Part shown: positions 2,349 through 22,051 of the stretch, piece after piece
Numbering within the stretch: position 1 is the first letter of the stretch
Layout of the letters: each line of letters opens with the position of its first letter
Source: Prevotellaceae bacterium UBA2448
GTDB taxonomy: Bacteria; Bacteroidota; Bacteroidia; Bacteroidales; Bacteroidaceae
Reading direction: 5' to 3'
Assembly: GCA_002342585.1 (NCBI GenBank)
Contig: DDQG01000007.1
Coordinates: 11,120 to 75,119, forward strand
Length of the DNA stretch: 64,000 nucleotides
Notes under the pieces: generated by a model
The model's database searches: none
Seen by the model: only the letters and a program-made list of their open reading frames with translations
What the model was told of the DNA's origin: nothing
Position numbers and translations under genes: made by a program

Positions 2349-2449
2349 CAACAGTTTTGAAAGCCCTAACATTCAATTACCGATCAAAAAAATAGCATAA
2401 ATAAATGTATAGAAAATCAATTATTATCAAACACATAAACTTATTACAC

Positions 2450-4951
2450 ATGAAGAAATTATTTTTATTCGGAACACTTGCAGTATTTATGGCTGCATGT
2501 TCAAGCAATGATGATCTTCAGGGCAACGAGTCCTATCAGCCAAATCTGACATCTTCATCTGACTATGCATTCGTAAAGGGTGATAGCCGTATTGTCATTG
2601 GCGGTGGTGAAACAAAAAGCACTCGTGGTGCTTGGGTAACAACTCCTCAGCCAGAGATTCCTGCTGATGCTAAGAAACTCGAAGTTGGTAGTTGGGGAGG
2701 TTTCTATGTTTACGAAGGTAACGAATGGTGGAACAACGGCGGTACACTTGACGCAAATGTAACTGAATACTACGTTCCTGCAGGTGAATCTGTTCATGCT
2801 ACCAATGCACAGTTTAACACTCTTTCAAGCCTTACTCTTTATGTAGCCGGAGACTTGATTATTGACTACTTCGACAACTATCCATCTAAAGTAACTATCA
2901 ACATTCTCAACGGTGGTTCATTCAACACCAACCTCAGCAATGGTGGAACTGTCTCAAATGATATCACAAAGTGGGAAACTGGTATGTTCCAGATTCCTGC
3001 AGGTTGGACAATCAACGTTTGGGGTAAGTTCGACACAGGTTACTATCCAAACATCTCTGTAACTCCAGGTGCTACATTGAATTACTTCGAAGGAGCAGAA
3101 GATGTTGTATTCGGTACTGAGCAAACCGAAAACTACGAGCTCTGGAAAAACGATGCAAACCCTGTACTTTCTGTATCTGGCACATTCTACTCAGAAGTTC
3201 CTGTTCGCGTTAAGGGTAATGCTAACTTTACTGGCGGTACTTCTACATTCTATGCAGGTGTTCACATCGACAAGAATGTTACCGTCAAAAATGACCCAAG
3301 TGTTCCAGTAGTTAACATCTATGAGTGTTCTTACATTGATGGTCAGTTCTCAATGACTTCAAATTCAGAGAAAGCAACATTCAACATTTATGACTATCTG
3401 TATTGCGGTTCTATGCATTGCAACAGTGCAGCAGTATATATCAACCTGTACGATGCACTTCTCGATGTTGACAATAACTTCTCAACTGTATCAAACGACT
3501 TCTACAAGAACAACCTCCTTGTTGACAAAGGCGCTGGCATCCAAATTAAGGGTGACACTGAAGGTACTTACGCAAGCATAGTACGTTTCCTCAACAACGA
3601 CCTGCACATTGACAAGGGCAACAACTATGATGTAGTAGAGGGAACAGGAGTTCCAACATCATTCTACGTGGAAAACACATTCTCTGGTAACCTCGTAGTT
3701 CTTTCTAAGAAAGTAACCATCGAATATCCAAAGATTGCAGGTCAGGATGATGCTACAGAAGTTATTACTTTCAAGGATGGCAATGTAGCTCTCAACGCAG
3801 AAAACGCATACCTCCCAGGTAAGGGTGAATGCCGTCCACAGATTGGTGAGGTTCCAGTAACTGTTATTCCTCCAGTGCACAAGTATTCTGCAACAGCTCT
3901 CGATTTCGGTCCTAACGGAGAACTCTACCTCTGCTGGCACTCAAATATCGGTAACGGAGAAGGTGGAAATGGTACAAACATGTACGTAACTAACGAAGAT
4001 GGTTCAAGTGTTTCTGTTGACGGAATCAATGACTGGGGTGGTATCATCGACGTTATCAACACTAACAACTATGGTGATCCTCAGACTTACCTCTTCGATC
4101 AGACTCTCATTCAGAATGAGCACAAGTACAACCACGTAGTTTACTACAGCGGAAAACTTTACCTCGCTGGTACAAGCAACAAGGTAGGTGCAGCTCTTCA
4201 CGAGATCGAACTGAACGCAGACGGAACTATCAACGAATCTGAATTCGCTGAAAAGAATATCCGTGTTAACCTGACTGGTTCTTCTGCAAATAGCAGCATT
4301 ATCAACAATGGCGAAATCATCACAATCTCAGGTTTCAACAATGGTGGTATCAACAAGTTTGCTCTAGACGATTACAGCAATCAGGAACAGAAGTCTATCT
4401 ATAGCAGTACTGAATATACCGGTAAATACCTCTACAACGACGGTACATATATCATCGGTCTTAACGATGTGAACAATGGTACTGTTACACTCTACGACCA
4501 GAACATGAACTATGTTAAGTCGTTCAACGTAGGTTCTCTCTTCCCAACTGACGGTAAGAACGTAGTTGTAGGTGATGGTTCTAAGATTTACGTTTGCCGT
4601 GGCAACAATGGTTTCGAAGTATATGACTACAATGGACAGCGCGTAGGTGGTTCTAAGAAGTCTGCTAACGGTGTAGATGTTGACGACAAGTACATCTATG
4701 TAGCAACAGGTCTTGGTCTTGTTGTTCTCGACAAGAATGAAACTTACACTGACGGTGAGGTTACATACAATAAGACTGTTAAGCGTTTCACATACACAGG
4801 TACAGGTAACTCCCGTTACAACGGCATCATCACAACAGATGCTTCTAAGCAGTCAGCTAACTTCGTTAAGGTTCGCAACGGAAAGGCATACGTAGCATAC
4901 GGTATGTATGGTCTGCAGATCTACGACGTTTCTAACCTCGCAAACAATTAA
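2450..4951 (+). CDS. large surface lipoprotein with a beta-rich N-terminal half and a C-terminal LVIVD-type beta-propeller
   Basis: ORF 2405-4951 trimmed to Met16, giving MKKLFLFGTLAVFMAACSSND (lipobox). The C-terminal half has LVIVD-like blades (GLGLVVLD, YGLQIYDVS, KIYVCRGNNGFEVYD). Confidence 0.6.
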   Translation: MKKLFLFGTLAVFMAACSSNDDLQGNESYQPNLTSSSDYAFVKGDSRIVIGGGETKSTRGAWVTTPQPEIPADAKKLEVGSWGGFYVYEGNEWWNNGGTLDANVTEYYVPAGESVHATNAQFNTLSSLTLYVAGDLIIDYFDNYPSKVTINILNGGSFNTNLSNGGTVSNDITKWETGMFQIPAGWTINVWGKFDTGYYPNISVTPGATLNYFEGAEDVVFGTEQTENYELWKNDANPVLSVSGTFYSEVPVRVKGNANFTGGTSTFYAGVHIDKNVTVKNDPSVPVVNIYECSYIDGQFSMTSNSEKATFNIYDYLYCGSMHCNSAAVYINLYDALLDVDNNFSTVSNDFYKNNLLVDKGAGIQIKGDTEGTYASIVRFLNNDLHIDKGNNYDVVEGTGVPTSFYVENTFSGNLVVLSKKVTIEYPKIAGQDDATEVITFKDGNVALNAENAYLPGKGECRPQIGEVPVTVIPPVHKYSATALDFGPNGELYLCWHSNIGNGEGGNGTNMYVTNEDGSSVSVDGINDWGGIIDVINTNNYGDPQTYLFDQTLIQNEHKYNHVVYYSGKLYLAGTSNKVGAALHEIELNADGTINESEFAEKNIRVNLTGSSANSSIINNGEIITISGFNNGGINKFALDDYSNQEQKSIYSSTEYTGKYLYNDGTYIIGLNDVNNGTVTLYDQNMNYVKSFNVGSLFPTDGKNVVVGDGSKIYVCRGNNGFEVYDYNGQRVGGSKKSANGVDVDDKYIYVATGLGLVVLDKNETYTDGEVTYNKTVKRFTYTGTGNSRYNGIITTDASKQSANFVKVRNGKAYVAYGMYGLQIYDVSNLANN

Positions 4952-4968
4952 TCAAACCAATTCATAAC

Positions 4969-5008
4969 TATGGGAATGTCACAACAATGGCATTCCCATA
5001 ATTTTCTT
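4969..5008 (+). terminator. rho-independent terminator hairpin
   Basis: tatgggaatg (4969-4978) pairs perfectly with cattcccata (4991-5000). It is followed by attttcttt. Confidence 0.6.
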
Positions 5009-5019
5009 TATATTCTATC

Positions 5020-6411
5020 TTGGATACTTTAGAAAAATATATCGCATTAACTTTCACACTCTTTTTCCTCCTTACATTTGGAGCCTTCGCGAAGACTGAC
5101 ACAATAAATGTGCCAGTCAAAATGCTTGTATATGAGAATCTGAAAAACGAGGATGTTTTGAAACAGTTTGAGAAGCGTTTCGAGGAGATGGACAAATTGT
5201 TACGAAACAAGATAAGAGTGGAGGGACCAAACCTCACATTTGGTGATGACGCACTGACTCCGAACACAACGATTGACTCGCTTTACAAAGCAAAAGAAAT
5301 TTGGGAGACCAAATCGTTTAAGCGAAGAACAGGACTGGAAATAACAGGACAAGCATATGGTCGCTTAGACAAAGCTACACAAATCTCTCACGACGACGAC
5401 GACCCTTACTCCTCCTATTTTGCAAAGTTTAATGCAGAATTAGGATGGAACTTCTTTAATAGTGCATTCTATCAAAGGAAAGCAGGGCTTGCTAAGATAA
5501 AATATGCTAATGAGTTAGAGCATATCAAAACAAGCAAAGACAAGAACAAGGCAATATATGAAGCAGCAGAAAATCTGCTTACAATGGAATACAACTATTA
5601 TATAGCTATTGTGCTATATCACGAACTGCAGAATATTGACATTCTGAATCAGGCATATCAATATATGCTTGAACAAGATAAGGTAAGCAATGAAGACTTG
5701 CTTGACAATATAAATAATAAGATGCAGCTCGAATACGAACTTGCACAGACCTACGATTTAAAGGACATAGAGAATGAACCTCTTTACGTTCTGAATCCAT
5801 CTATAGTTACTATTGATTCTGTCAGGCTTTTTGAAGAAATCGAAAAATATAATCCTGATTTAAGAGCAAGCTACGTAGAAGAACAACTACTCGATACAGA
5901 ACGCAAACTCACGAATTACGGCCACAACATGAGACTAACACCGTTTTTTCGTGCGTCAACGTATTTGCGTCGCAACTTATCACCATCTACAAATCTTGAC
6001 TTAGGTGTAAGATTCACATTTCCATTATATGACGAATCAGCGCCCAAACGCAGAGCTATTGAAACTCAAAAGTGGATTTTAGTTGAAAACAGGGATAAGT
6101 TAAGCGAACAGATGAAATCGTTTTGCAGTTTAATGCTTGACCGTGTAGAACGACTAAACAGAGCCATCAAGACAGAAGCATACCATATTGAACAACTTGG
6201 AAAATACATAGATATTCGTAAAAACGCATATCTCAAACAACCTAAAGGATACAACTTTATTCTCCGACTAGAAGAATACAATGAATACCTCAAGAGTATG
6301 GAACGTATGTACAAGTTGATGCTCAACCGCACACTCACACTTTTGGAAATACAAAAGACTACGAATTTCAACAATTTACAATCTCTTATTATTGAAACGC
6401 CTGTCAAATGA
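5020..6411 (+). CDS. TolC-like outer-membrane efflux/duct protein
   Basis: 463 aa with a TTG start, which is needed to include the signal peptide ALTFTLFFLLTFGAFA|KTD. It has two helix-rich repeats, each ending in beta-strand motifs (AELGWNFFNSAFY; LGVRFTFPLYDES) like the TolC/OEP family. The stop overlaps the next start (ATGA). Confidence 0.6.
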   Translation: MDTLEKYIALTFTLFFLLTFGAFAKTDTINVPVKMLVYENLKNEDVLKQFEKRFEEMDKLLRNKIRVEGPNLTFGDDALTPNTTIDSLYKAKEIWETKSFKRRTGLEITGQAYGRLDKATQISHDDDDPYSSYFAKFNAELGWNFFNSAFYQRKAGLAKIKYANELEHIKTSKDKNKAIYEAAENLLTMEYNYYIAIVLYHELQNIDILNQAYQYMLEQDKVSNEDLLDNINNKMQLEYELAQTYDLKDIENEPLYVLNPSIVTIDSVRLFEEIEKYNPDLRASYVEEQLLDTERKLTNYGHNMRLTPFFRASTYLRRNLSPSTNLDLGVRFTFPLYDESAPKRRAIETQKWILVENRDKLSEQMKSFCSLMLDRVERLNRAIKTEAYHIEQLGKYIDIRKNAYLKQPKGYNFILRLEEYNEYLKSMERMYKLMLNRTLTLLEIQKTTNFNNLQSLIIETPVK

Positions 6412-7637
6412 ACAACTTCAGTTATAATTCACAACCACAGGAACAAGATATAAATGACCTTCTGAATTATCAGAATAAGAAACTTGCCAAGCAACAGAAT
6501 GTTTACGCAATAGTATTCACTATTATTTTGATTCTGTTGTTAATATTCGCATATAGACGAGTTTTCTACACATATTATGATGGATATGTCAATTTGGAGC
6601 AAAATAACTTACGTGCTATTGACGACTTATATATTCTAGACATATATAAAAACGTTGGAGATGTAGTACAACCAGGTGATACTTTATACTCATATATCCT
6701 TTTGGAAAACCTGCTTGGACAATTCAATGTTAATACTGTTCCATCAATTATACTTGACCACGCAAACATGAAGCTTCGCGCTGCTTTAGCAAAGCAAGAA
6801 TTGCCTGTTATCCAAACCAAGATTAACGAAATACAGAAGCAATTGAAAAGCGAACAGAACGACATTTTTTATGGTCTTACAGATAACACTAAGCGTATGG
6901 CATTAGAAGCTGAACTGAACGAATACAGAGAAAAGTTATCGGAATTACGCAACAAGATACAAATCTATGAGAGCATGGCAGGTAACTCATCACGTTACAT
7001 CGTAAATTCTGGTTATGGACACAATCGCCTACCATATTCTCCAGGAAGTTTATATTACGAAAATGGTGTGATTCAATATTGTTGTGCACCAGAAGAAGCC
7101 ATTGTAACAGATATTAAAGTAGCCAAAAACACAGTTGTCTTCGAAAAGGAAAACATTATTGACCTTCAGCATACAGACTACAAAGGTTCTCACATCGGAG
7201 TAATGGCATACATTCCTGCACATCAAGTAAAATATATTAACAACCAGAAACAAGTCGATGTAATTGTCAATGATGACATAATCCTTCATGCTCATATGTC
7301 ATTACTAGGACTACGTGTAGAAGACATTCCTAAGCACTTACTCAGTAACTTTAGTCATGACATTGACGCTGTTATAGCTTATTTCCTCTTCGACAAGGAC
7401 CAATACGTACCATTTTGGGTACTCAACAATCACTTACCAGTACGAGTACGTGTTCGCAACGATGTATTCCACGAGGCATTCTATAACTCCTTTGGCGGTA
7501 TTTTCAATGGACTTTTCTCAGAACCCGACTCTTTGAAATATAGCCCACGCCGTATATTTGAGATAAAGGAAGATCAGAAATTCGTCCCTGTTGACACAAC
7601 AACATTCCGTGAACTTACTAAAGACCACAATTTCTAA
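6408..7637 (+). CDS. HlyD-family periplasmic adaptor (membrane fusion protein)
   Basis: 409 aa with a single N-terminal TM helix (VYAIVFTIILILLLIFAY). It has a lipoyl-like motif (GDVVQPGDTLYSY), a long coiled coil (KQELPVIQTKINEIQKQLKSEQ...ELNEYREKLSELRNKIQIYE), and a C-terminal beta domain. Confidence 0.7.
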   Translation: MNNFSYNSQPQEQDINDLLNYQNKKLAKQQNVYAIVFTIILILLLIFAYRRVFYTYYDGYVNLEQNNLRAIDDLYILDIYKNVGDVVQPGDTLYSYILLENLLGQFNVNTVPSIILDHANMKLRAALAKQELPVIQTKINEIQKQLKSEQNDIFYGLTDNTKRMALEAELNEYREKLSELRNKIQIYESMAGNSSRYIVNSGYGHNRLPYSPGSLYYENGVIQYCCAPEEAIVTDIKVAKNTVVFEKENIIDLQHTDYKGSHIGVMAYIPAHQVKYINNQKQVDVIVNDDIILHAHMSLLGLRVEDIPKHLLSNFSHDIDAVIAYFLFDKDQYVPFWVLNNHLPVRVRVRNDVFHEAFYNSFGGIFNGLFSEPDSLKYSPRRIFEIKEDQKFVPVDTTTFRELTKDHNF

Positions 7638-7639
7638 TC

Positions 7640-9271
7640 ATGATAACAATACAAAATAACAATAACGAACGTCGAATACTGCTATTGGACAGTCAGTTTA
7701 ATCTTGAAGAATCACCTGACTTTCCAGAATACCTGTTTGATGCAATTTTTATATACAACGATTCTGTAGAACAGACTCAAAATATACTAAATGACATCAA
7801 CCCTATAACATCACAAAAATGTTGTTACAAACCTCTTTTCGTAGCACGTTCATTAGAAGGAAAAATGGGAGACTACGCCTCAGTCATTGACGGATACATC
7901 GATGACTGGAACGACAAGGACGCTTTGAATAAAGTCGAGGATATCATCAACAGGCGAAACGAACTGGGACTAAACGCCCCAGAGGAGAAGATTCTCTCAT
8001 CCAACCAGTTGTTCGTACGTCTGACGCGTTTCCTCATCATACGCAACAACCTGATAATGCATCCGGTATTGGAGAACGGCTCTTCTTCAGGATACGTCAT
8101 ACCGATATATAATCTGTTCTATAAACTGGGATGGTACAAATTGAGCGAGAGTTTCGTCTTCGTACAGTCTATGATTGAAAAGGGATATTTCCGCACGACC
8201 CAATTCCTCAACCGTATTTACCTGTGTCCCAAATGCCAGCATTCTCACCTTCTCTATATAGAGAGTTGTCCGAAGTGCAACAATTCGATGATTCACAGCG
8301 AAGAGGTTATCCACCACTTCCGCTGCGCCAACATCACTCCGGAACATACTTACAACTTTGGCGGACAGCTCAGATGTCCAAAATGTCACCAGATGCTTCA
8401 CCACATAGGTGTGGACTACGACCGTCCTGCAACAGTATTCACATGCGATGTGTGCAACAACTCATTCCTGCAGGCAAAGATGCAGGCTCTGTGTTCTAAC
8501 TGCCAATCAGTGTCTGACGTAAAATCACTCGTTCCTATTAATGTTTACGTTTACGAGATTACGAAAGAGGGTATCTATGCAATCACATCTCTCAACATAG
8601 GCTTCTCTATTTACACTGAGTTCCATGACAACTTCCTTGAATTTAACCGGTTTGTCAATCGAATTCGCCTGTTGGCAGAACAGAAATTCTCAGGTCGGAT
8701 ACTCGGAGACGTACTTGTCGGTAAGATTTGGATTATCGACTCCACATCCGCAACGGTGAGAAACCGCGCCGAACTGCTTGCACAGGTATGCCAATACTTC
8801 CCTAATAACAAGGTGTCAGCAGCTAATAACATCACATACATCAATGCTATTGCTACAGACTATAAAGGCGATCAGGAACAGGCAGTACTCGACTTCCAGA
8901 TAATGCTATCGGAAGCCATCCGTGCCGCGGCATACGTACTGCGCCCCGGGGAAAAGATCTGTTACACATACATGAAACTGGAAGGAAACGGTTCAAATAT
9001 CGACGATTTCCTGAATGACCTCAACTTTGTGGCTACTAACCCTGACGACAGCGTTGACTACGATCCCAATGCCATCAATCCGAATGCAGATAGAAACGTG
9101 GATTCTCCATTGCTTAATGACGATGGAACAGTAGAAACAACACTAGAAGTAACCCCACAAACCGATGTTGCAGAGACACCTGAAAATACAGAAGATATTC
9201 AAGTACCCGAAAATACAAACCTCTTCACCAAGTTAAAAGACTCTATATGTCGTATATTTTCGATTCATTAG
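7640..9271 (+). CDS. cytoplasmic multi-zinc-ribbon protein of unknown function, possibly TackOD1-like
   Basis: 543 aa with no TM segment. Five CxxC pairs lie within about 95 aa: CPKC-x11-CPKC, CPKC, CDVC-x12-CSNC. An N-terminal module of about 120 aa is receiver-like but degenerate (RILLLDSQ...). The C-terminal tail is acidic and P/N/T-rich. The gene overlaps the GT2 gene by 25 nt. Confidence 0.5.
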   Translation: MITIQNNNNERRILLLDSQFNLEESPDFPEYLFDAIFIYNDSVEQTQNILNDINPITSQKCCYKPLFVARSLEGKMGDYASVIDGYIDDWNDKDALNKVEDIINRRNELGLNAPEEKILSSNQLFVRLTRFLIIRNNLIMHPVLENGSSSGYVIPIYNLFYKLGWYKLSESFVFVQSMIEKGYFRTTQFLNRIYLCPKCQHSHLLYIESCPKCNNSMIHSEEVIHHFRCANITPEHTYNFGGQLRCPKCHQMLHHIGVDYDRPATVFTCDVCNNSFLQAKMQALCSNCQSVSDVKSLVPINVYVYEITKEGIYAITSLNIGFSIYTEFHDNFLEFNRFVNRIRLLAEQKFSGRILGDVLVGKIWIIDSTSATVRNRAELLAQVCQYFPNNKVSAANNITYINAIATDYKGDQEQAVLDFQIMLSEAIRAAAYVLRPGEKICYTYMKLEGNGSNIDDFLNDLNFVATNPDDSVDYDPNAINPNADRNVDSPLLNDDGTVETTLEVTPQTDVAETPENTEDIQVPENTNLFTKLKDSICRIFSIH

Positions 9272-10563
9272 ATACATTTGTGACATGGTTCCAGCACCTG
9301 TCGATATCCAGTATAATCAATACATACTGGTTTATCTTCTTTATCGAAATACCTCGATACTATCTGCTTGAAATCATAATTGTATCGTATAATGTACTTA
9401 CATATAAACGTCAGGACAAAAAACGGTTCTATGCACATTATAGACTGCTTAAAGAAAATCCCCTCATAACCATACTCGTACCTGGAAAGAATGAAGGAAA
9501 AAACATTTACAAACTTGTAAAATCCCTTGCAGAACAGACCTACAAAAATTATGAAATCATAATTGTTGATGACGGGTCTGACGATTATACTCCACTAATC
9601 TGTTCTGACTTGGAAAAGCATGGTTATATAGACCTGTACCTGCGCTGTGGAGTACGTGGTGGAAAAGCTTCGGCAGCCAATTATGGCGCATATCATGCAA
9701 AAGGAAAATACATTGTACATCTCGATGCCGATTCGTCACTTGACCGCGATGCAATTGAAAACATACTTCTGCCCTTCTATCTTGACCCTAAAATCAAAGC
9801 CGTAGGAGGCACAGTAAAAGTGCGTAACTACAAGGATTCTATTTGTGCTTCAATGCAGGCAATAGAATATCTTAAAACTATCATGATAGGACGTAAGGTA
9901 ACCGATACTCTAGGAATCCTGCATATCATCTCAGGAGCTTTTGGCGCATTTGAAGTAGAAACTCTGAAGAAAATCGGATACTGGGACATCGGTCCAGGAC
10001 TTGACGGAGACATCACTCAGAAGATACGCAAAGCCGGTTGGAAGGTGGCACACACCTCAGAAGCAGTGTGTCTTACAAATGTGCCTGTTAAATGGAAGGT
10101 GCTTTTCAAGCAAAGACTCAGATGGTCCAAGTCGCTCGTGCGATTCAGAATACGTAAACATCGTGACATCCTTTATCCAAACCGCAACTGGTCACTGAGC
10201 AACTTCGTTTCTAACATGGAGAGTATCATTTATGACTGCGTTTTCAACTATATATGGTTATTCTATTTCATAGGACTTATTGCAAACTTCAGCAACCATA
10301 TATTTGAAGTCATGCTACTCGACTTCCTAATCCGATTATGCCTTGCATGCGTTGCATTCGCTGTGATAATGACAGTAACCGAACGCAGGCGAGAAGAGCT
10401 ATTCCTTATACGATTCTTGCCGTTGACGTCACTCTACACAGGATATTTCATGCGCATCGTACGTTTACTTGCACATACGAAAGAGCTTTTCTTCTTCTCT
10501 TCGTACAAAGACCCATGGAATCCTGAAAAAACATCAAGATATGCACAACTTGAACGAGCATAA
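9247..10563 (+). CDS. membrane-embedded processive family-2 glycosyltransferase (PgaC/IcaA/NodC/BcsA-like polysaccharide synthase)
   Basis: 438 aa with TM helices at both ends. Motifs: ILVPGKNEG..., DDGSDD, HLDADS (DxD), LDGDIT (TED-like) and QRLRW (QxxRW). Confidence 0.8.
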   Translation: MSYIFDSLDTFVTWFQHLSISSIINTYWFIFFIEIPRYYLLEIIIVSYNVLTYKRQDKKRFYAHYRLLKENPLITILVPGKNEGKNIYKLVKSLAEQTYKNYEIIIVDDGSDDYTPLICSDLEKHGYIDLYLRCGVRGGKASAANYGAYHAKGKYIVHLDADSSLDRDAIENILLPFYLDPKIKAVGGTVKVRNYKDSICASMQAIEYLKTIMIGRKVTDTLGILHIISGAFGAFEVETLKKIGYWDIGPGLDGDITQKIRKAGWKVAHTSEAVCLTNVPVKWKVLFKQRLRWSKSLVRFRIRKHRDILYPNRNWSLSNFVSNMESIIYDCVFNYIWLFYFIGLIANFSNHIFEVMLLDFLIRLCLACVAFAVIMTVTERRREELFLIRFLPLTSLYTGYFMRIVRLLAHTKELFFFSSYKDPWNPEKTSRYAQLERA

Positions 10564-10596
10564 AAACAATATATAATAACAAAAACATTAGCAATT

Positions 10597-11013
10597 ATGA
10601 ACGCACTTATCAATCCAGGTATTGATGTTGACAAGCTTACCGTCCTCGTAGTAGACGATGTGCCACTAAATGTGTTGCTCATCAAAAAAATGCTTTCTCA
10701 GTACACATTCCAACTGAAAACTGCCAACAGTGGACAAGCAGCGCTAGACATCATCGCACAATCAATGCCCGATCTTCTCCTTCTCGATCTTATGATGCCA
10801 GGCATCGATGGATTCGAGGTTATTCGTCGTCTTCGTGCCGATGAGAAGACAAAGAAGTTACCTATTATTATCCTCTCTGCCCTCAACTCAGAAGCAGACA
10901 TAGTAAAAGGATTTAAGCTGGGAGCTAACGATTTCATAAACAAGCCGATTATTATGGAAAAGTTAATCAGCAGTGTAACAACCCAAATTAATCTTGCAGC
11001 AGCAACAAAATAG
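10597..11013 (+). CDS. stand-alone CheY-like response regulator receiver
   Basis: 138 aa with VLVVDDVPLN, LLLLDLMMPGIDG (phospho-Asp context), ILSAL and NKP. There is no output domain. Confidence 0.85.
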   Translation: MNALINPGIDVDKLTVLVVDDVPLNVLLIKKMLSQYTFQLKTANSGQAALDIIAQSMPDLLLLDLMMPGIDGFEVIRRLRADEKTKKLPIIILSALNSEADIVKGFKLGANDFINKPIIMEKLISSVTTQINLAAATK

Positions 11014-11034
11014 GTAATTTTATTATAAATAAAA

Positions 11035-11067
11035 AGTCCTTACAGTCAACGTAAGGACTTTTTTTTA
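11035..11067 (+). terminator. rho-independent terminator
   Basis: agtccttac (11035-11043) pairs with gtaaggact (11051-11059). An 8-T tract follows. Confidence 0.8.
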
Positions 11068-17857: not shown

Positions 17858-20047
17858 ATGGGAATCACCCAGAAAACTTGGAAGGAACAACTGGGGAACT
17901 CTGGTACCAGTTTGACAGTCATCATCTCTGCAGTATTATTATTGGAGTTGATGATGGGAGTCATGTTCTATTCCGCACAGAACTTTATACAAAAGACCAT
18001 GGAACGGATGGTAGGCGTTGAGATGAACTCCATCTATCTTCGTATCCGCAACAAACTATCCGATGTCGAAGTGACTATAGATAATATGTCATGGGTTGTC
18101 AGTGAAGGTCTGGATGAGCCAAGTTGGATGTTTGACATAACACGGAGAATGGTTAAGAACAATCCAATTGTCTGGGGTTGTGGCGTTGCTTTTGTACCGG
18201 ACTACTATCCGAAATGGGGTACGTTTTTTGAGCCATATGCTGTACGCAGGGATCAGGACTCCATAATGTCAATGCAAATAGGACATTACAAAATCGACCA
18301 TACAAAAAAAGAATATTTTCGCATACCTGTTTCACAAGGGAAATCACATTGGAGCGAGCCGTACATAGATCTTGTTGGCGCTAAATCAGTCATAACAACC
18401 TATAGTACTCCTATACACAACAGTTCAAACCATATTGTAGGAGTTGTATTTGCTGATATCACAACAGATTTGCTGAAGAACATTATGGAAGAGGAGAGAA
18501 TCTATAAATCTACTCAGCGTATTCTGGTAACAGGAAAATGCAACATATTGGCAGGTAACGATACTCCTTTATTCAGGGATATACTTGAACGACTGAAAAA
18601 AGACCACGATAAAACCGAATATTTTGCAATAAGGGATAAAGACGGCAGGAAACACCACGTGTTCTACACCGACGTTGGCGGAAAAACAGACTGGTTGCTC
18701 ATAAATATTCTGGATGACAGTGAGGTATTCGGCAGATTACGAATAATGCGTATGATGCTGATGCTTCCTGTGGTAATCGGTCTGCTCTTTGCATGGCTCA
18801 TCGTATGGCGTAGTTCAAACAATTTGAAACGTCTGAATGAGGTTAATGCCGAAAAAGAGCGCATAGACAGCGAGTTGCAAGTTGCAAGTCACATACAGCA
18901 AAGCATGTTGCCTCATAGAGAGTTGAACACTAAAAACTTTGAGCTAAAAGGGTTTTTGAAACCGGCCCGTGAGGTTGGCGGTGATTTATACGACTACTTC
19001 ATACGTGATGGAAAGTTGTATTTCTGTATTGGTGATGTCAGCGGGAAAGGGGCTCCTTCTGCAATACTTATGGCAGTCATCCATACATTGTTCCGTTCAG
19101 TATCAACACATGAGAGTAATCCAGCCCGCATTATGCAGTCCATCAATCTTTTCGCCTGTCAGGAAAACGACTCTAACATGTTTGTAACAATGTTTATCGG
19201 TGTGCTTGATTTGCCAACAGGACACATGCGTTATTGCGATGCTGGACATGACGCACCATTTATCATTTCCAATACATCAACACATGCTGACACGCCCGCA
19301 GATGGTCAGTGGTCAATGATTAATGTCAACCCCAATCTTCCCATTGGTGTGTTTGATGACACAAAATATAAAGTTCAGGAAACAACATTGCAACCATATA
19401 GTACCCTTTTCCTTTATACAGACGGATTAACAGAGGCAAAAAACGCGAACCGCAAGCAGTTTGGTTTGAAGCGAATAGAGGATGTACTTACTACCTGCAC
19501 CAATAATGAACCAAAGGAGATTATTGAGAAAATAGTTAAAACTATAGATAATTTTGTAAAGGATGCCAAACAGAGTGACGACTTAACTATGTTGGCTATC
19601 AAATATACTCCTGTACAGTTTGAAAGTACTTGGACCGATACATTAACCATAAAAAATGATGTGCATGAAGTAAAGCGTTTCAGCAACTTCATAAAAACGG
19701 CAACCGAAAACCTTAACATTGACACATCACTGGCTCGCCAGTTGCGTCTGGCAGTAGAGGAAGCTGTGGTCAACGTGATAGACTATGCATATCCGATAGA
19801 TACCAAAGGTAACATTACTATTAACATGATGTTTGACGGCAATAGTCTTCGTTTCCAGATTATTGACTCAGGTGCAGCATTTGATCCTACTACGATACAG
19901 AAATCTGACACAACGCTCTCTGCAGAAGACCGCCAGATTGGCGGACTTGGCATTTTGCTGGTTCGGGAACTTATGGACAGTATCAACTATGAACGAACAG
20001 ACGGAAAGAATATATTGACACTTATAAAGAATATAACAAATAATTAA
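17858..20047 (+). CDS. membrane sensor PP2C (SpoIIE/RsbU-type) phosphatase fused to an RsbW-like HATPase kinase domain
   Basis: 729 aa. Layout: TM, Cache-like periplasmic domain (...HWSEPYIDLVGAKSVITTYSTPI...GVVFADIT), TM, PP2C motifs (GGDLYDY, GDVSGKGAPSA, YTDGLTEA, DDLTMLAI), then an HATPase_c-like end (EEAVVNVIDYAY, GGLGILLVRELMD). Confidence 0.75.
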   Translation: MGITQKTWKEQLGNSGTSLTVIISAVLLLELMMGVMFYSAQNFIQKTMERMVGVEMNSIYLRIRNKLSDVEVTIDNMSWVVSEGLDEPSWMFDITRRMVKNNPIVWGCGVAFVPDYYPKWGTFFEPYAVRRDQDSIMSMQIGHYKIDHTKKEYFRIPVSQGKSHWSEPYIDLVGAKSVITTYSTPIHNSSNHIVGVVFADITTDLLKNIMEEERIYKSTQRILVTGKCNILAGNDTPLFRDILERLKKDHDKTEYFAIRDKDGRKHHVFYTDVGGKTDWLLINILDDSEVFGRLRIMRMMLMLPVVIGLLFAWLIVWRSSNNLKRLNEVNAEKERIDSELQVASHIQQSMLPHRELNTKNFELKGFLKPAREVGGDLYDYFIRDGKLYFCIGDVSGKGAPSAILMAVIHTLFRSVSTHESNPARIMQSINLFACQENDSNMFVTMFIGVLDLPTGHMRYCDAGHDAPFIISNTSTHADTPADGQWSMINVNPNLPIGVFDDTKYKVQETTLQPYSTLFLYTDGLTEAKNANRKQFGLKRIEDVLTTCTNNEPKEIIEKIVKTIDNFVKDAKQSDDLTMLAIKYTPVQFESTWTDTLTIKNDVHEVKRFSNFIKTATENLNIDTSLARQLRLAVEEAVVNVIDYAYPIDTKGNITINMMFDGNSLRFQIIDSGAAFDPTTIQKSDTTLSAEDRQIGGLGILLVRELMDSINYERTDGKNILTLIKNITNN

Positions 20048-20063
20048 TTAAATCATAATAGTC

Positions 20064-20366
20064 ATGAATGCAAAATTTGAAGAAATCGATGGCAAGTATA
20101 TTGCTACATTACAAGGAGAAATGGACACAGCTGCTGCTGTAGAGGCTGAGGAAATTTTGAAACCATTATATACCAGCAATGGCAAGGATGTTATTATCGA
20201 TTGCAAAGACTTAGAATATATCGCTTCCAGTGGATTACGTATTTTACTTGGCATATTGAAAGGTGCTAAATCTTCTGGTAGTAAAGTTACATTACGTGAC
20301 GTAAACGAAGATATCAAGACGGTATTTAAACTAACAGGATTCATTAGCATCTTCGAATTCGAATAA
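20064..20366 (+). CDS. STAS-domain anti-sigma-factor antagonist (RsbV/SpoIIAA-like)
   Basis: 100 aa. DLEYIASSGLRILL contains the conserved phosphorylatable Ser context. It lies 16 nt downstream of the phosphatase-kinase gene. Confidence 0.8.
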   Translation: MNAKFEEIDGKYIATLQGEMDTAAAVEAEEILKPLYTSNGKDVIIDCKDLEYIASSGLRILLGILKGAKSSGSKVTLRDVNEDIKTVFKLTGFISIFEFE

Positions 20367-20695
20367 GCACATAACAACATAAAAGAGTGGACAAGGAATT
20401 AAGAGAACATATTATAGCGATGTTTGCCCATTGCCATCGCCCTTGGTGCACTCATAGGTAAAAGTGCATACCAACTTGAAGTTATCAAGGATTTAACTCC
20501 AGAATCGCTTGAAGAAGGAAAAAAATAAGTATTCACAACTTAACAAGTATCGGTGCCGATGCCATGTGTAAAACTGATGACATGATACTCAACATCATGA
20601 CGCCGAAGGATAATCCTCCAAAATAATCGAGTGAACATCCATTACAAAATGTAATTTACATACCTTGAAAAAAACTTTTTAATAACTAATACGAT

Positions 20696-22051
20696 ATGAG
20701 TTCTTTTTCATCAAAGATCGGAGTTTTGTTAGCTGCAGCTGGTAGCGCAGTCGGATTGGGTAGTATCTGGAAATTCCCATATGTAGTAGGTGAGAACGGC
20801 GGTGGTGCGTTCATCATACTATATGTAGTTTGTTCATTGGTATTCGGTCTGCCTTTGGTAATGAACGATTTCCTGATAGGAAAGCTGTCAGGCAAGAGTG
20901 CCTACGGAGCCTTCCGCACCCTATCTGGTAATAACCGATGGCAATGGCTATCATGTTTAATGATTATTACAGTAACACTGCTCACTAGTTTCTACTTCGT
21001 AGTGACCGGATGGTGTTTCTACTACATGGTCGAAGCTGCAATGAACACTTTTGCAGGCATGGATGCAGAAGCACTGACAAATTTCTTCCATACTTTTGAA
21101 CACCAGCCTACAACGATGATAATCTATGCCTTCATTGCAATATTTCTGACAGCAGCAGTATTGTGGTTTGACGTCAATAAAGGTATAGAACGTTTGAGCA
21201 AGATACTGATGCCTATGTTATTCCTGATGTTGATAGCAATGGCTTTCCATATGGCATTCCTTGACGGCGGTACTAAGGGGTTGCGGTTTTTGTTTGAACC
21301 AGACTTATCGAAACTTACACCCAAGGTAATCCTTGAGGCTATAGGATTGAGTTTCTTTACATTGTCTATAGGATTAGGTATTCTTATCACTTATGGAGGC
21401 TATATGCCAAAGGAACAGGATGAGTCAATGCTTTCTCAAGAGAAAAATGTGGTAAGTACGTCGGTACAGATGATAGTTCTGGTTCTATTCGTATCGTTAT
21501 TAGCAGGCATGATCGTATTCCCTGCGGTGTTCGCATATGGGTTTAGCCCGGCAGAGGGACCTCAATTGACATTTGTCACGCTGCCCAATGTGTTCCAGCA
21601 TATGTTCAGCCCTACCCTGACCAGCGTCTCGTTTTTTGCACTGATGTGTGTGGCAGCCATCACCTCAACCATCTCACTGATGGAGGTAATGGTGGCATTT
21701 ATATGTGAAGCATCAGGGAAGACCAAGCAACCACTCAACAGACATCAAAGTGTGACTATTGTAGGCGTGATACAATTGATTACCAATTCACTATGCATTC
21801 TGTCAATGACAGGTAGTGTCAGTTGGCTTACGATAATGGACAAGAATTTGTTTGACGCAGCCAATAACCTGACCACCAACATTCTGATTCCTATTGGTGC
21901 AATGGGCACTTCCCTGTTCACGGGATGGTTCGTTCCCAAGGCAAGGTATCAAAGTTCACCACTGGTATCATTCATATATCTGATGATGCTGCGATGGATA
22001 GTTCCTATCGTCATTCTTATTATATTCCTTGAATCAATGAATGTATTTTAG
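20696..22051 (+). CDS. sodium-dependent transporter, neurotransmitter:sodium symporter (NSS/SNF) family
   Basis: 451 aa. The N-terminal GSAVGLGSIWKFPYVVGENGGGAFI signature is present, with about 11-12 TM segments. Confidence 0.85.
   Translation: MSSFSSKIGVLLAAAGSAVGLGSIWKFPYVVGENGGGAFIILYVVCSLVFGLPLVMNDFLIGKLSGKSAYGAFRTLSGNNRWQWLSCLMIITVTLLTSFYFVVTGWCFYYMVEAAMNTFAGMDAEALTNFFHTFEHQPTTMIIYAFIAIFLTAAVLWFDVNKGIERLSKILMPMLFLMLIAMAFHMAFLDGGTKGLRFLFEPDLSKLTPKVILEAIGLSFFTLSIGLGILITYGGYMPKEQDESMLSQEKNVVSTSVQMIVLVLFVSLLAGMIVFPAVFAYGFSPAEGPQLTFVTLPNVFQHMFSPTLTSVSFFALMCVAAITSTISLMEVMVAFICEASGKTKQPLNRHQSVTIVGVIQLITNSLCILSMTGSVSWLTIMDKNLFDAANNLTTNILIPIGAMGTSLFTGWFVPKARYQSSPLVSFIYLMMLRWIVPIVILIIFLESMNVF

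Follow-up and report, generated by a model that had tools for sequence, protein, structure and literature searches.

The 64,000-nucleotide stretch analysed here, called the window throughout, comes from Prevotellaceae bacterium UBA2448, a rumen organism of Prevotella type (contig DDQG01000007.1, positions 11,120 to 75,119 of the forward strand) and carries at 5020-11013 a candidate operon for exopolysaccharide (EPS) secretion. Its five open reading frames all lie on the + strand, are tightly coupled and stand between two strong hairpins. Genes 1 and 2 share an ATGA overlap at 6408-6411, genes 2 and 3 are joined through TAATCATG (TAA-TC-ATG) at 7635-7642, genes 3 and 4 overlap by 25 nt (9247-9271), and a gap of 33 nt (10564-10596) separates gene 4 from gene 5. 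An earlier note made from the letters of this DNA had described five co-directional, coupled genes bracketed by hairpins, and all of the motifs and junctions that it reported are present. The reading frames themselves suggest that genes 3 and 4 are co-translated. The five genes are as follows.

5020-6411, + strand: gene 1, 463 aa from a TTG start; divergent TolC-like outer-membrane factor (OMF), the candidate dedicated duct (AlphaFold2 (AF2) fold, Foldseek, profile link)
6408-7637, + strand: gene 2, 409 aa; membrane-fusion or periplasmic adaptor protein (MFP) (AF2 fold, Foldseek)
7640-9271, + strand: gene 3, 543 aa; TackOD1 protein with a degenerate GGDEF domain
9247-10563, + strand: gene 4, 438 aa; membrane-embedded processive family 2 glycosyltransferase (GT2) synthase of PgaC/IcaA type (Pfam, NCBIfam, motifs)
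10597-11013, + strand: gene 5, 138 aa; single-domain CheY-like receiver (Pfam Response_reg, E 1.2e-29)

Two sets of loci carrying TackOD1, the central domain of gene 3, served for comparison. The Bacteroidales set holds the best 80 of at least 583 TackOD1 loci from a scan of one genome per species, all 80 of them from Bacteroidales, and the environmental set holds 80 loci gathered around a family member that shares ~23% identity with gene 3. Denominators that differ from feature to feature (e.g. 48, 54, 61, 67 or 68) are subsets of these 80-locus sets. A profile search for TackOD1 proteins returned 2,141 clusters at 50% identity.

Synthase, adaptor and TolC-like protein

Gene 4 matches Pfam Glycos_transf_2 (E 6e-28) and Chitin_synth_2 (E 3e-9), and its top NCBIfam match, PgaC_IcaA (E 1.6e-49), extends over nearly the full length of the protein. 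The motifs from which it had been called a processive GT2 lie at residues 108 (DDGSDD), 158 (HLDADS), 252 (LDGDIT) and 289 (QRLRW), and that call is borne out by the family match and by the invariance of D108, D109, D160, D162, D253, D255, Q289, R290, R292 and W293 across 119 TackOD1-linked GT2s, which share 42-93% identity. Hydrophobic segments at 29-47, 327-345 and 356-374, together with weaker ones, are clustered at both ends. The annotated or recognised genes adjoining the cluster include no ABC, RND or MFS transporter in any locus examined, and the GT2 is therefore the sole candidate for an inner-membrane partner. Its sequence features allow the proposal that it acts as both polymerase and inner-membrane translocon of the system.

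The fold of gene 1 is that of a TolC-type OMF. An AF2 model built from 37 homologues (predicted local distance difference test (pLDDT) 82.6, predicted TM-score (pTM) 0.71) contains two repeats, each of two strands plus a helix of ~66 residues (66-67), and its top 40 Foldseek PDB matches are all OMFs (TolC, ST50, CusC, CmeC, OprM, OprN, VceC and MtrE), aligned over the full length with E-values down to 2.5e-13. Neither the protein nor its profile matches Pfam OEP (PF02321), and neither has a PDB sequence match. The family profile aligns, however, with the N-terminal ~460 residues of ~700-aa proteins in the matching position of environmental operons (hhalign probability 98.9%, E 4e-17), and Pfam OEP is matched by 17/43 of these orthologues, so that fold and profile link both uphold the TolC-type assignment first made by eye. 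Of the signal peptide and two repeats noted at that time, the repeats reappear in the model, while the signal peptide holds only if translation begins at TTG 5020; several gene callers start instead at ATG 5122, which gives a 429-aa product lacking it. The long form is favored because homologues measure ~447-485 aa and because an outer-membrane protein needs such a signal.

The environmental OMFs extend beyond the TolC-like part into a C-terminal GH18-like domain, with Pfam GH18 found in 12/43 members (best E 7e-8) and weak results from a PDB profile search of the domain. This fused portion is ~240 aa long, bears the motifs GIHLDIEPH..DW and MAYEN, and occurs in L098 (3469-5865) and in ~50 other environmental loci; in some copies LysM or SPOR domains are present as well. 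We know of no prior description of an OMF-glycosidase fusion.

Gene 2 had been read as an HlyD-type adaptor from its single transmembrane (TM) helix and the motif GDVVQPGDTLYSY, both of which are present (the one strong TM segment spans residues 31-49), and the predicted fold supports this. In the AF2 model a cytoplasmic N-tail and the TM helix lead into a lipoyl domain, an alpha-hairpin with helices of ~40 residues and a beta-barrel, and the top 50 Foldseek PDB matches are all adaptors of the EmrA, ZneB, MacA, AcrA, MexA and CusB kinds (E 2e-12 to 1e-7). Direct searches of Pfam, NCBIfam and PDB with single sequences and profiles returned nothing significant for either gene 1 or gene 2. The Pfam HlyD_3 match of gene 2 is sub-threshold (E 0.016, scoring 16.4 bits where the cutoff is 22.2), a colinear hhalign alignment with the HlyD-family adaptor of Plesiomonas has E 1.2e-4 at 55% probability, and a 50%-identical homologue is named 'HlyD family secretion protein' by NCBI. 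Within the N-tail (residues 1-30, window 6408-6500), M1, F4, P10, L19, L26, Q29 and Q30 are invariant in 33 sequences, and this strongly conserved tail is a candidate for the place where the GT2 or the TackOD1 protein makes contact.

The TackOD1 regulator and its receiver

Gene 3 had been taken for a generic multi-zinc-ribbon protein; it is in fact a TackOD1 protein (PF18551) that continues into a degenerate GGDEF domain, and four parts can be told apart.

7640-7993, + strand: N-terminal domain, residues 1-118; conserved family-wide, fold unassigned
7997-8560, + strand: TackOD1 domain, residues 120-307; Pfam PF18551, E 3.7e-46
8561-9049, + strand: degenerate GGDEF-like domain, residues ~308-470; no GG(D/E)EF, I-site segment deleted
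9050-9271, + strand: acidic low-complexity tail, from the alignment of homologues

The TackOD1 match scores 157.5 bits against a cutoff of 32. The domain contains five CxxC motifs and one HxxC motif, predicted to bind zinc, and eleven cysteines are invariant (C196, C199, C210, C213, C229, C246, C249, C269, C272, C285 and C288), in agreement with the 11-Cys pattern described for TackOD1 by Galperin et al. (2018, PMC5847659), who called its function 'obscure' and also described fusions of receiver (REC) domains to TackOD1. A literature search on PF18551 or a Prevotella copri module found nothing apart from that study.

The C-terminal domain of gene 3 has no direct Pfam GGDEF match of its own, and its ancestry emerges from the family. 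Pfam GGDEF is matched by the C-domains of 4/33 diverse members, the profile of the environmental family matches PDB diguanylate cyclases (E 1.9e-10) with the family string 'RssDvvsfkndstf' aligned over 'RKSDIISRFGGEEF', and the window-branch domain is homologous to the environmental GGDEF-like domain (hhalign 94%, E 1.4e-7). No genuine GG[DE]EF signature exists in 265 family proteins, the lone [GAS]G[DE]EF match being SGEEF in P0170, and the domain is for this reason considered dead. The I-site motif RxxD, through which cyclic diguanylate (c-di-GMP) could bind, is deleted throughout the gut branch (0/80) and kept in 35/71 environmental loci, as well as in Plesiomonas in the form RDTD. A c-di-GMP I-site common to the whole TackOD1 family was also considered and is ruled out, since strict RxxD occurs in 31/142 family representatives; c-di-GMP binding is thus possible for part of the family at most. 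The statement in the earlier note that the regulators here are something other than c-di-GMP modules accordingly needs amending: the C-domain of gene 3 is the relic of such a module, with its I-site deleted in this branch.

The N-terminal domain is common to the gut and environmental branches (hhalign 98.6%, E 8e-16), and some relatives have a true REC at its position. That it might be a pseudo-receiver was considered and rejected, as REC matches in the PDB profile search are weak (E 0.023-1.3) and hhalign against a REC profile from these same loci gave 5% probability. At the other end of the protein, many homologues possess a C-terminal TM helix past the acidic tail (P0170, P0178, P0185, P0196, P0197, P0205, P0212 and P0240), and some add a periplasmic domain of ~90 aa that looks SPOR-like by eye; the window copy has neither helix nor domain. 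In one 669-aa family member (P0403) a fused UDPG_MGDP_dh_C domain precedes TackOD1, and in a few environmental loci (L139, L148 and L175) a dehydrogenase gene lies directly upstream of the TackOD1 gene, a hint that regulator and precursor supply are directly linked.

Gene 5 has the canonical residues of a receiver (DD at 20-21, D64, S94 and K116) and, as supposed from the outset, is CheY-like. It is likely to be a phospho-dependent input to gene 3. A REC gene lies 3' of the cluster in 35/48 Bacteroidales core loci and a histidine kinase (HK) gene in 14/48. Among environmental loci RxxD occurs in 33/57 without REC or HK neighbors vs 2/14 with them (Fisher p 0.006), and in the gut branch, where none of the 80 loci keeps RxxD, a REC or HK gene is nearby in 70/80. 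The samples are phylogenetically non-independent, and this statistic on an exchange of inputs is therefore suggestive only. The pattern agrees with a census of signalling genes in which sequenced Bacteroidetes have many kinases and no diguanylate cyclases (PMC1183210). Judged from these co-occurrences, a phosphorelay input has apparently replaced the c-di-GMP input in gut and rumen Bacteroidales.

TackOD1 and REC genes also persist as paralogous pairs away from secretion genes, at 24/80 Bacteroidales loci (L015-L040), and the REC gene is 3' of the TackOD1 gene in 23 of the 24. Each pair consists of a TackOD1 protein of ~485-493 aa that shares ~60% identity with gene 3 and, directly after it, a REC of 142 aa (e.g. 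L015:8001-9482 and 9516-9944). The pairs sit among unrelated housekeeping genes, between FAD synthetase/DUF3109 and a gene for a BspA-type leucine-rich repeat protein, with no OMF, MFP or GT2 gene nearby.

Conservation, proposed mechanism and alternatives

The same operon is found on rumen and gut metagenome contigs and in metagenome-assembled genomes, the nearest named genome being Prevotellaceae bacterium UBA2744. The order OMF>MFP>TackOD1>GT2 on one strand is kept in 55/80 Bacteroidales loci, including many Segatella copri strains with complete genomes, and the cluster is near-universal among Prevotellaceae/Segatella loci. The survey of gene co-occurrence that had been suggested thus comes out in favor of a conserved neighborhood, and it does so in environmental loci as well. 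There the GT2 is the next gene after TackOD1 in 64/67 cases, a recognisable MFP is the preceding gene in 50/68, and an OMF-like gene stands two upstream in 51/61.

Proteobacterial plasmids and chromids carry the genes as TackOD1>GT2>HlyD (Plesiomonas, Palleronia, Roseibium and Phyllobacterium), and no OMF gene was seen in the stretches examined. The Plesiomonas TackOD1 protein is annotated 'diguanylate cyclase': its GGDEF match is above the Pfam threshold and its RDTD I-site is intact, while the signature is degenerate. Those of Palleronia and Roseibium are annotated 'response regulator' and are surrounded by Hpt and kinase genes, the Palleronia protein being a fusion of a true REC with TackOD1. 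In two other lineages (L008:264-1481; L094:3435-4076) a phage-type integrase or a resolvase directly precedes the cluster, and a TackOD1-GGDEF gene is carried on the 29-kb mobilizable Aeromonas caviae plasmid pKAM345_3 (L179). Some lineages may exchange the module horizontally, despite its conserved synteny here.

The relatives of the window operon differ from it in one respect that bears on the product. A gene of the UDPG/GDP-Man-dehydrogenase family lies directly 3' of the GT2 in 49/54 Bacteroidales loci, and the encoded enzyme is closest to the TviB-type UDP-N-acetylglucosamine (UDP-GlcNAc) 6-dehydrogenases (393-459 bits vs at most 240 for other subfamilies). It is cleanly absent at 10563-10597 and in UBA2744 (L012), it is present in L013, L014, L030 and L092, and the whole 64-kb window yielded no homologue of UDP-glucose dehydrogenase. 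The flanks of the locus are shared by relatives with a gene 1 of ~72% identity (TP_methylase, an AI-2E transporter and a lipoprotein on one side; a ThiD-like kinase and GH127 on the other), and because a relative with the same flanks has the dehydrogenase between GT2 and REC, the locus is chromosomal and stable and the dehydrogenase has been lost in the window lineage. As far as gene content tells, the unit in relatives is larger than five genes, with a lipoprotein, the TviB-like dehydrogenase and a histidine kinase added. The added dehydrogenase implies a polymer containing N-acetylglucosaminuronic acid (GlcNAcA) in most Bacteroidales relatives, and its loss means that the product of the window operon is probably un-oxidised, unless a dehydrogenase is encoded elsewhere in the genome.

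The closest described counterpart appears to be mxdABCD of Shewanella oneidensis (SO_4180-4177), whose product is thought to be an EPS for three-dimensional biofilm (PMC3691769, PMC3409153, PMC7666153, PMC11395469). MxdA has a degenerate GGDEF domain, binds c-di-GMP and interacts with CheY3, and phospho-CheY3 is needed for biofilm (PMC3691769, PMC7666153); MxdB is a membrane GT2 and MxdC a homologue of efflux-pump MFPs (PMC3691769, PMC3409153). Mutants in mxd form flat biofilms, the system giving matrix, aggregation and three-dimensional biofilm phenotypes (PMC3691769). Matched by component type and description, both operons couple a degenerate-GGDEF effector, a GT2 and an MFP, and the proteobacterial loci in which TackOD1 plus a degenerate GGDEF with RxxD precedes GT2 and HlyD share the mxdABC order. 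The window operon differs in its order (OMF>MFP>regulator>GT2), in its cis-encoded divergent OMF, in the deleted I-site and in the dedicated cheY-like gene within the operon, and its relatives differ further in adding the HK, the TviB-like dehydrogenase and the lipoprotein. No equivalent of MxdD was identified here.

The conduit likewise has precedents. In Thermosynechococcus a tripartite GT2-HlyD-TolC route for cellulose has been proposed (XcsA/Tll0007-Tlr0903-Tlr1605; Maeda 2018, as cited in PMC8892547), and in Sinorhizobium TolC is required for the BgsBA mixed-linkage glucan (MLG), where bgsBA is a bicistronic operon and tolC was identified separately (PMC13438883). Both combine a processive GT2, an MFP and a TolC-type duct as a polysaccharide conduit. 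Their synthases are BcsA-like and gated by c-di-GMP directly (through PilZ or a C-terminal domain), whereas gene 4 is PgaC/IcaA-like and has no c-di-GMP domain. In systems of the Xcs/BgsBA type TolC is not known to belong to the synthase operon. Here, by comparison, a divergent OMF is dedicated to the operon, and regulation would fall to a separate TackOD1-GGDEF-like protein and a CheY. The view that this architecture matches no characterised system was consequently too strong, given these GT2-HlyD-TolC precedents (PMC8892547, PMC13438883) and the Mxd logic (PMC3691769, PMC7666153).

Other synthase-dependent systems are more distant. Gene 4 is comparable to the PgaABCD/IcaADBC synthases in size, topology and D,D,D,QxxRW motifs, but PgaD/IcaD, the PgaB/IcaB deacetylase and the PgaA tetratricopeptide-repeat (TPR) porin have no counterpart here, and export is proposed to run through MFP and OMF. 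In PelD a degenerate GGDEF domain carries an I-site. Alg44 joins a periplasmic domain resembling an MFP to a cytoplasmic sensor (PMC8892547). The Pel and alginate systems resemble the present one in being synthase-dependent and in having a separate receptor module (PelD, Alg44), and they differ in that TackOD1 takes that part here, without GAF or PilZ and with the I-site lost, and in that a TolC-like duct stands in place of a TPR-porin. With EmrAB-TolC, MacAB-TolC and HlyBD-TolC the likeness lies in the folds of genes 1 and 2 and in a probable docking geometry with long alpha-hairpins; what differs is the inner-membrane energiser, here a glycosyltransferase in place of an ABC, MFS or RND protein.

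There is fairly good reason to think that the operon encodes a trans-envelope, synthase-dependent EPS machine on the plan of a tripartite efflux pump, with an Mxd-like regulator that takes phospho-receiver input. In such a machine the gene 4 GT2 would polymerise a nucleotide sugar, most likely UDP-GlcNAc, and the growing chain would be threaded across the inner membrane; a ring of membrane-anchored gene 2 adaptors would span the periplasm to the gene 1 duct, a trimeric TolC-like channel that would take the polymer over the outer membrane. The suggested polymer chemistry draws on the PgaC_IcaA top match, the TviB-like dehydrogenase of relatives and the GH18-like domain on environmental OMFs. 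Gene 3, as a cytoplasmic counterpart of MxdA, would probably control the synthase post-translationally. Its environmental and proteobacterial relatives, which often keep the I-site, may respond to c-di-GMP, and in gut and rumen Bacteroidales the input would be the phosphorylated gene 5 receiver, binding gene 3 as an activating signal and fed by an HK that is encoded in cis in relatives and not here. Of all this, the analysis establishes the families and folds of the five proteins, a gene order kept across phyla and the losses of I-site and dehydrogenase; physical assembly, the nature of the polymer, the direction of regulation and the binding of phosphorylated CheY to gene 3 are inferred.

Several observations weigh against this interpretation. 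Genes 1 and 2 are recognised solely through the folds predicted for them and through transitive profiles; the model of gene 2 is of mediocre quality (pLDDT 71, pTM 0.39), and TM-scores of monomers lie at 0.25-0.57. Gene 4 scores 169 bits with the PgaC/IcaA equivalog model (TIGR03937), below its cutoff of 422, and no gene for a small PgaD/IcaD-like partner was found in the operon; substrate and linkage are for both reasons guesses. On the regulatory side, just 31/142 gene 3 family representatives have the strict RxxD, the anti-correlation between I-site and two-component genes is confounded by phylogeny, the window operon has no histidine kinase gene, and the presumed place of MxdA in the TackOD1 family comes from gene order, annotation and domain descriptions only. 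Finally, no good promoter is seen between the upstream hairpin and gene 1 (4999-5019 inspected).

It is also conceivable, if unlikely, that gene 3 serves to scaffold or localise, acts as a brake, or senses zinc or redox state rather than being an activator that receives phosphorylated CheY, and that the target of gene 5 lies elsewhere. The eleven conserved cysteines could sense redox state, the C-terminal TM helix of some homologues, sometimes with its SPOR-like domain, suggests positioning at the envelope, and the N-domain is not demonstrably receiver-like. Yet REC adjacency is kept even where the secretion genes are missing (the 23 of 24 paralogue loci), REC-TackOD1 fusions exist, the overlap of gene 3 with gene 4 suggests co-translation, and CheY3 binds MxdA experimentally (PMC7666153). 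Somewhat less credible still is that the GT2 makes a short oligosaccharide or signalling glycan, akin to the chito-oligomers of NodC, which MFP and OMF would then export in the manner of an efflux pump. TolC-type conduits are chiefly known for passing small molecules and unfolded proteins, gene 4 also matches NodC and chitin-synthase models, and the GH18-like fusion of environmental OMFs could trim or process oligomers. The top family match is nonetheless PgaC/IcaA, the related Mxd system yields matrix and aggregation phenotypes (PMC3691769), and in BgsBA-TolC and cyanobacterial Xcs a conduit of this type exports glucans of high molecular weight (PMC13438883, PMC8892547).

Recent acquisition of the block as an accessory island, at which its low content of guanine plus cytosine (GC) had been thought to hint, is very improbable. 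The dip is real though modest (39.5% for the operon vs 44.0% for the window, with genes 1 and 2 at 36-37%), an integrase or resolvase does adjoin the cluster in two other lineages, and a TackOD1-GGDEF gene is borne on the mobilizable Aeromonas plasmid; the conserved synteny leaves an accessory origin unsupported, however, as the flanks are shared with the relatives whose gene 1 is ~72% identical, nearly all Prevotellaceae/Segatella loci have the cluster, no phage was matched, and the plasmid matches are to distant proteobacterial relatives only. Least credible of all is a role for MFP and OMF in efflux or type I secretion with a pump encoded elsewhere, the GT2 and the regulator being mere neighbors. 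Genes 1 and 2 do have ordinary efflux-pump folds, but the strict colinearity and overlapping stop and start codons speak against chance proximity, as does the joint occurrence of MFP, TackOD1 and GT2, unaccompanied by any transporter gene, in well over 100 loci from two or more phyla.

A wider proposal can also be entertained, though with slightly more doubt than belief: Mxd-type systems may form an unrecognised cross-phylum family of synthase-dependent EPS secretion systems with a conduit like that of an efflux pump, in which the TackOD1 protein is a universal receptor integrating c-di-GMP (through the I-site) and phospho-CheY. Gut and rumen Bacteroidales, Segatella copri among them, would then have deleted the c-di-GMP input and hard-wired the system to a dedicated two-component phosphorelay and its own duct, for a matrix polymer of GlcNAc/GlcNAcA type. 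The GT2-MFP-TolC idea and the triad of degenerate GGDEF, GT2 and MFP (mxdABC) are already known; what is new here is the dedicated duct, the phosphorelay apparently standing in for c-di-GMP, and a first functional context for TackOD1. That domain, 'obscure' in Galperin et al. 2018, thereby gains a testable bacterial setting as a regulator of GT2 synthases, and the CheY3-MxdA interaction gains independent genomic support from fusion, conserved adjacency and the apparent trade-off with the I-site. The pattern also illustrates a possible re-plumbing of a c-di-GMP-gated machine in a lineage reported to be without diguanylate cyclases, and it adds a case of an operon-encoded, dedicated duct to the debated export of polysaccharides through TolC-type proteins. 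Work on the surface glycans of gut and rumen Bacteroidales has, so far as is known, centred on Wzx/Wzy capsules, and the present reading predicts in these abundant organisms, Segatella copri among them, an unstudied synthase-dependent EPS with a duct of its own.

Flanking genes, hairpins and other observations

Three further features lie at the borders of the operon.

2405-4951, + strand: associated lipoprotein gene; likely start ~2450 (MKKLF...AAC|S lipobox)
4969-5000, + strand: hairpin plus T-run between the lipoprotein gene and gene 1; 13-bp stem with 5 GC pairs, then ATTTTCTTTA
11031-11063, both strands scored: bidirectional hairpin terminator closing the operon; stem of 13-14 bp with A and T runs on either side

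The lipoprotein qualifies the picture of a five-gene unit: that unit is confirmed in the window, but the homologous gene upstream, which travels with the cluster in relatives, had been missed. A homologue is present in 40/55 core loci, the lipobox cysteine is invariant in the family, and the C-terminal half is homologous to large proteins beside distant clusters (E 8e-21 and 9e-11). Among 31 members the Pfam matches are to PQQ_2/BamB-like (17), LVIVD (11) and PorZ_N (7) families; Pfam and PDB profile searches gave beta-propeller signals alone and pointed to no enzyme family. The lipoprotein has a beta-propeller as its C-terminal part, and its N-terminal part is possibly beta-helix-like.

Both bracketing hairpins are real, although their coordinates as first given were off by a few bases. 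They have the longest stems of 9 terminator-like sites in the region, where shuffled sequence leads one to expect 4.6 +/- 2.3. The one at 4969-5000, which separates the lipoprotein gene from gene 1, could from its stem and T-run be a terminator or an attenuator. In the interval 4999-5019 there is no convincing promoter of Bacteroidetes type (TAnnTTTG), the nearest match being 'TAATTTTC', and gene 1 may be transcribed by read-through from the lipoprotein gene, with the hairpin as attenuator.

Farther downstream, at window ~17860-20370 (18613-21121 in locus L001), lies a partner-switching-type module that is probably unrelated to the operon. It consists of a 729-aa PDC sensor, similar to methyl-accepting chemotaxis proteins and bearing SpoIIE phosphatase and HATPase_c_2 domains, and of a 100-aa STAS protein that follows it.

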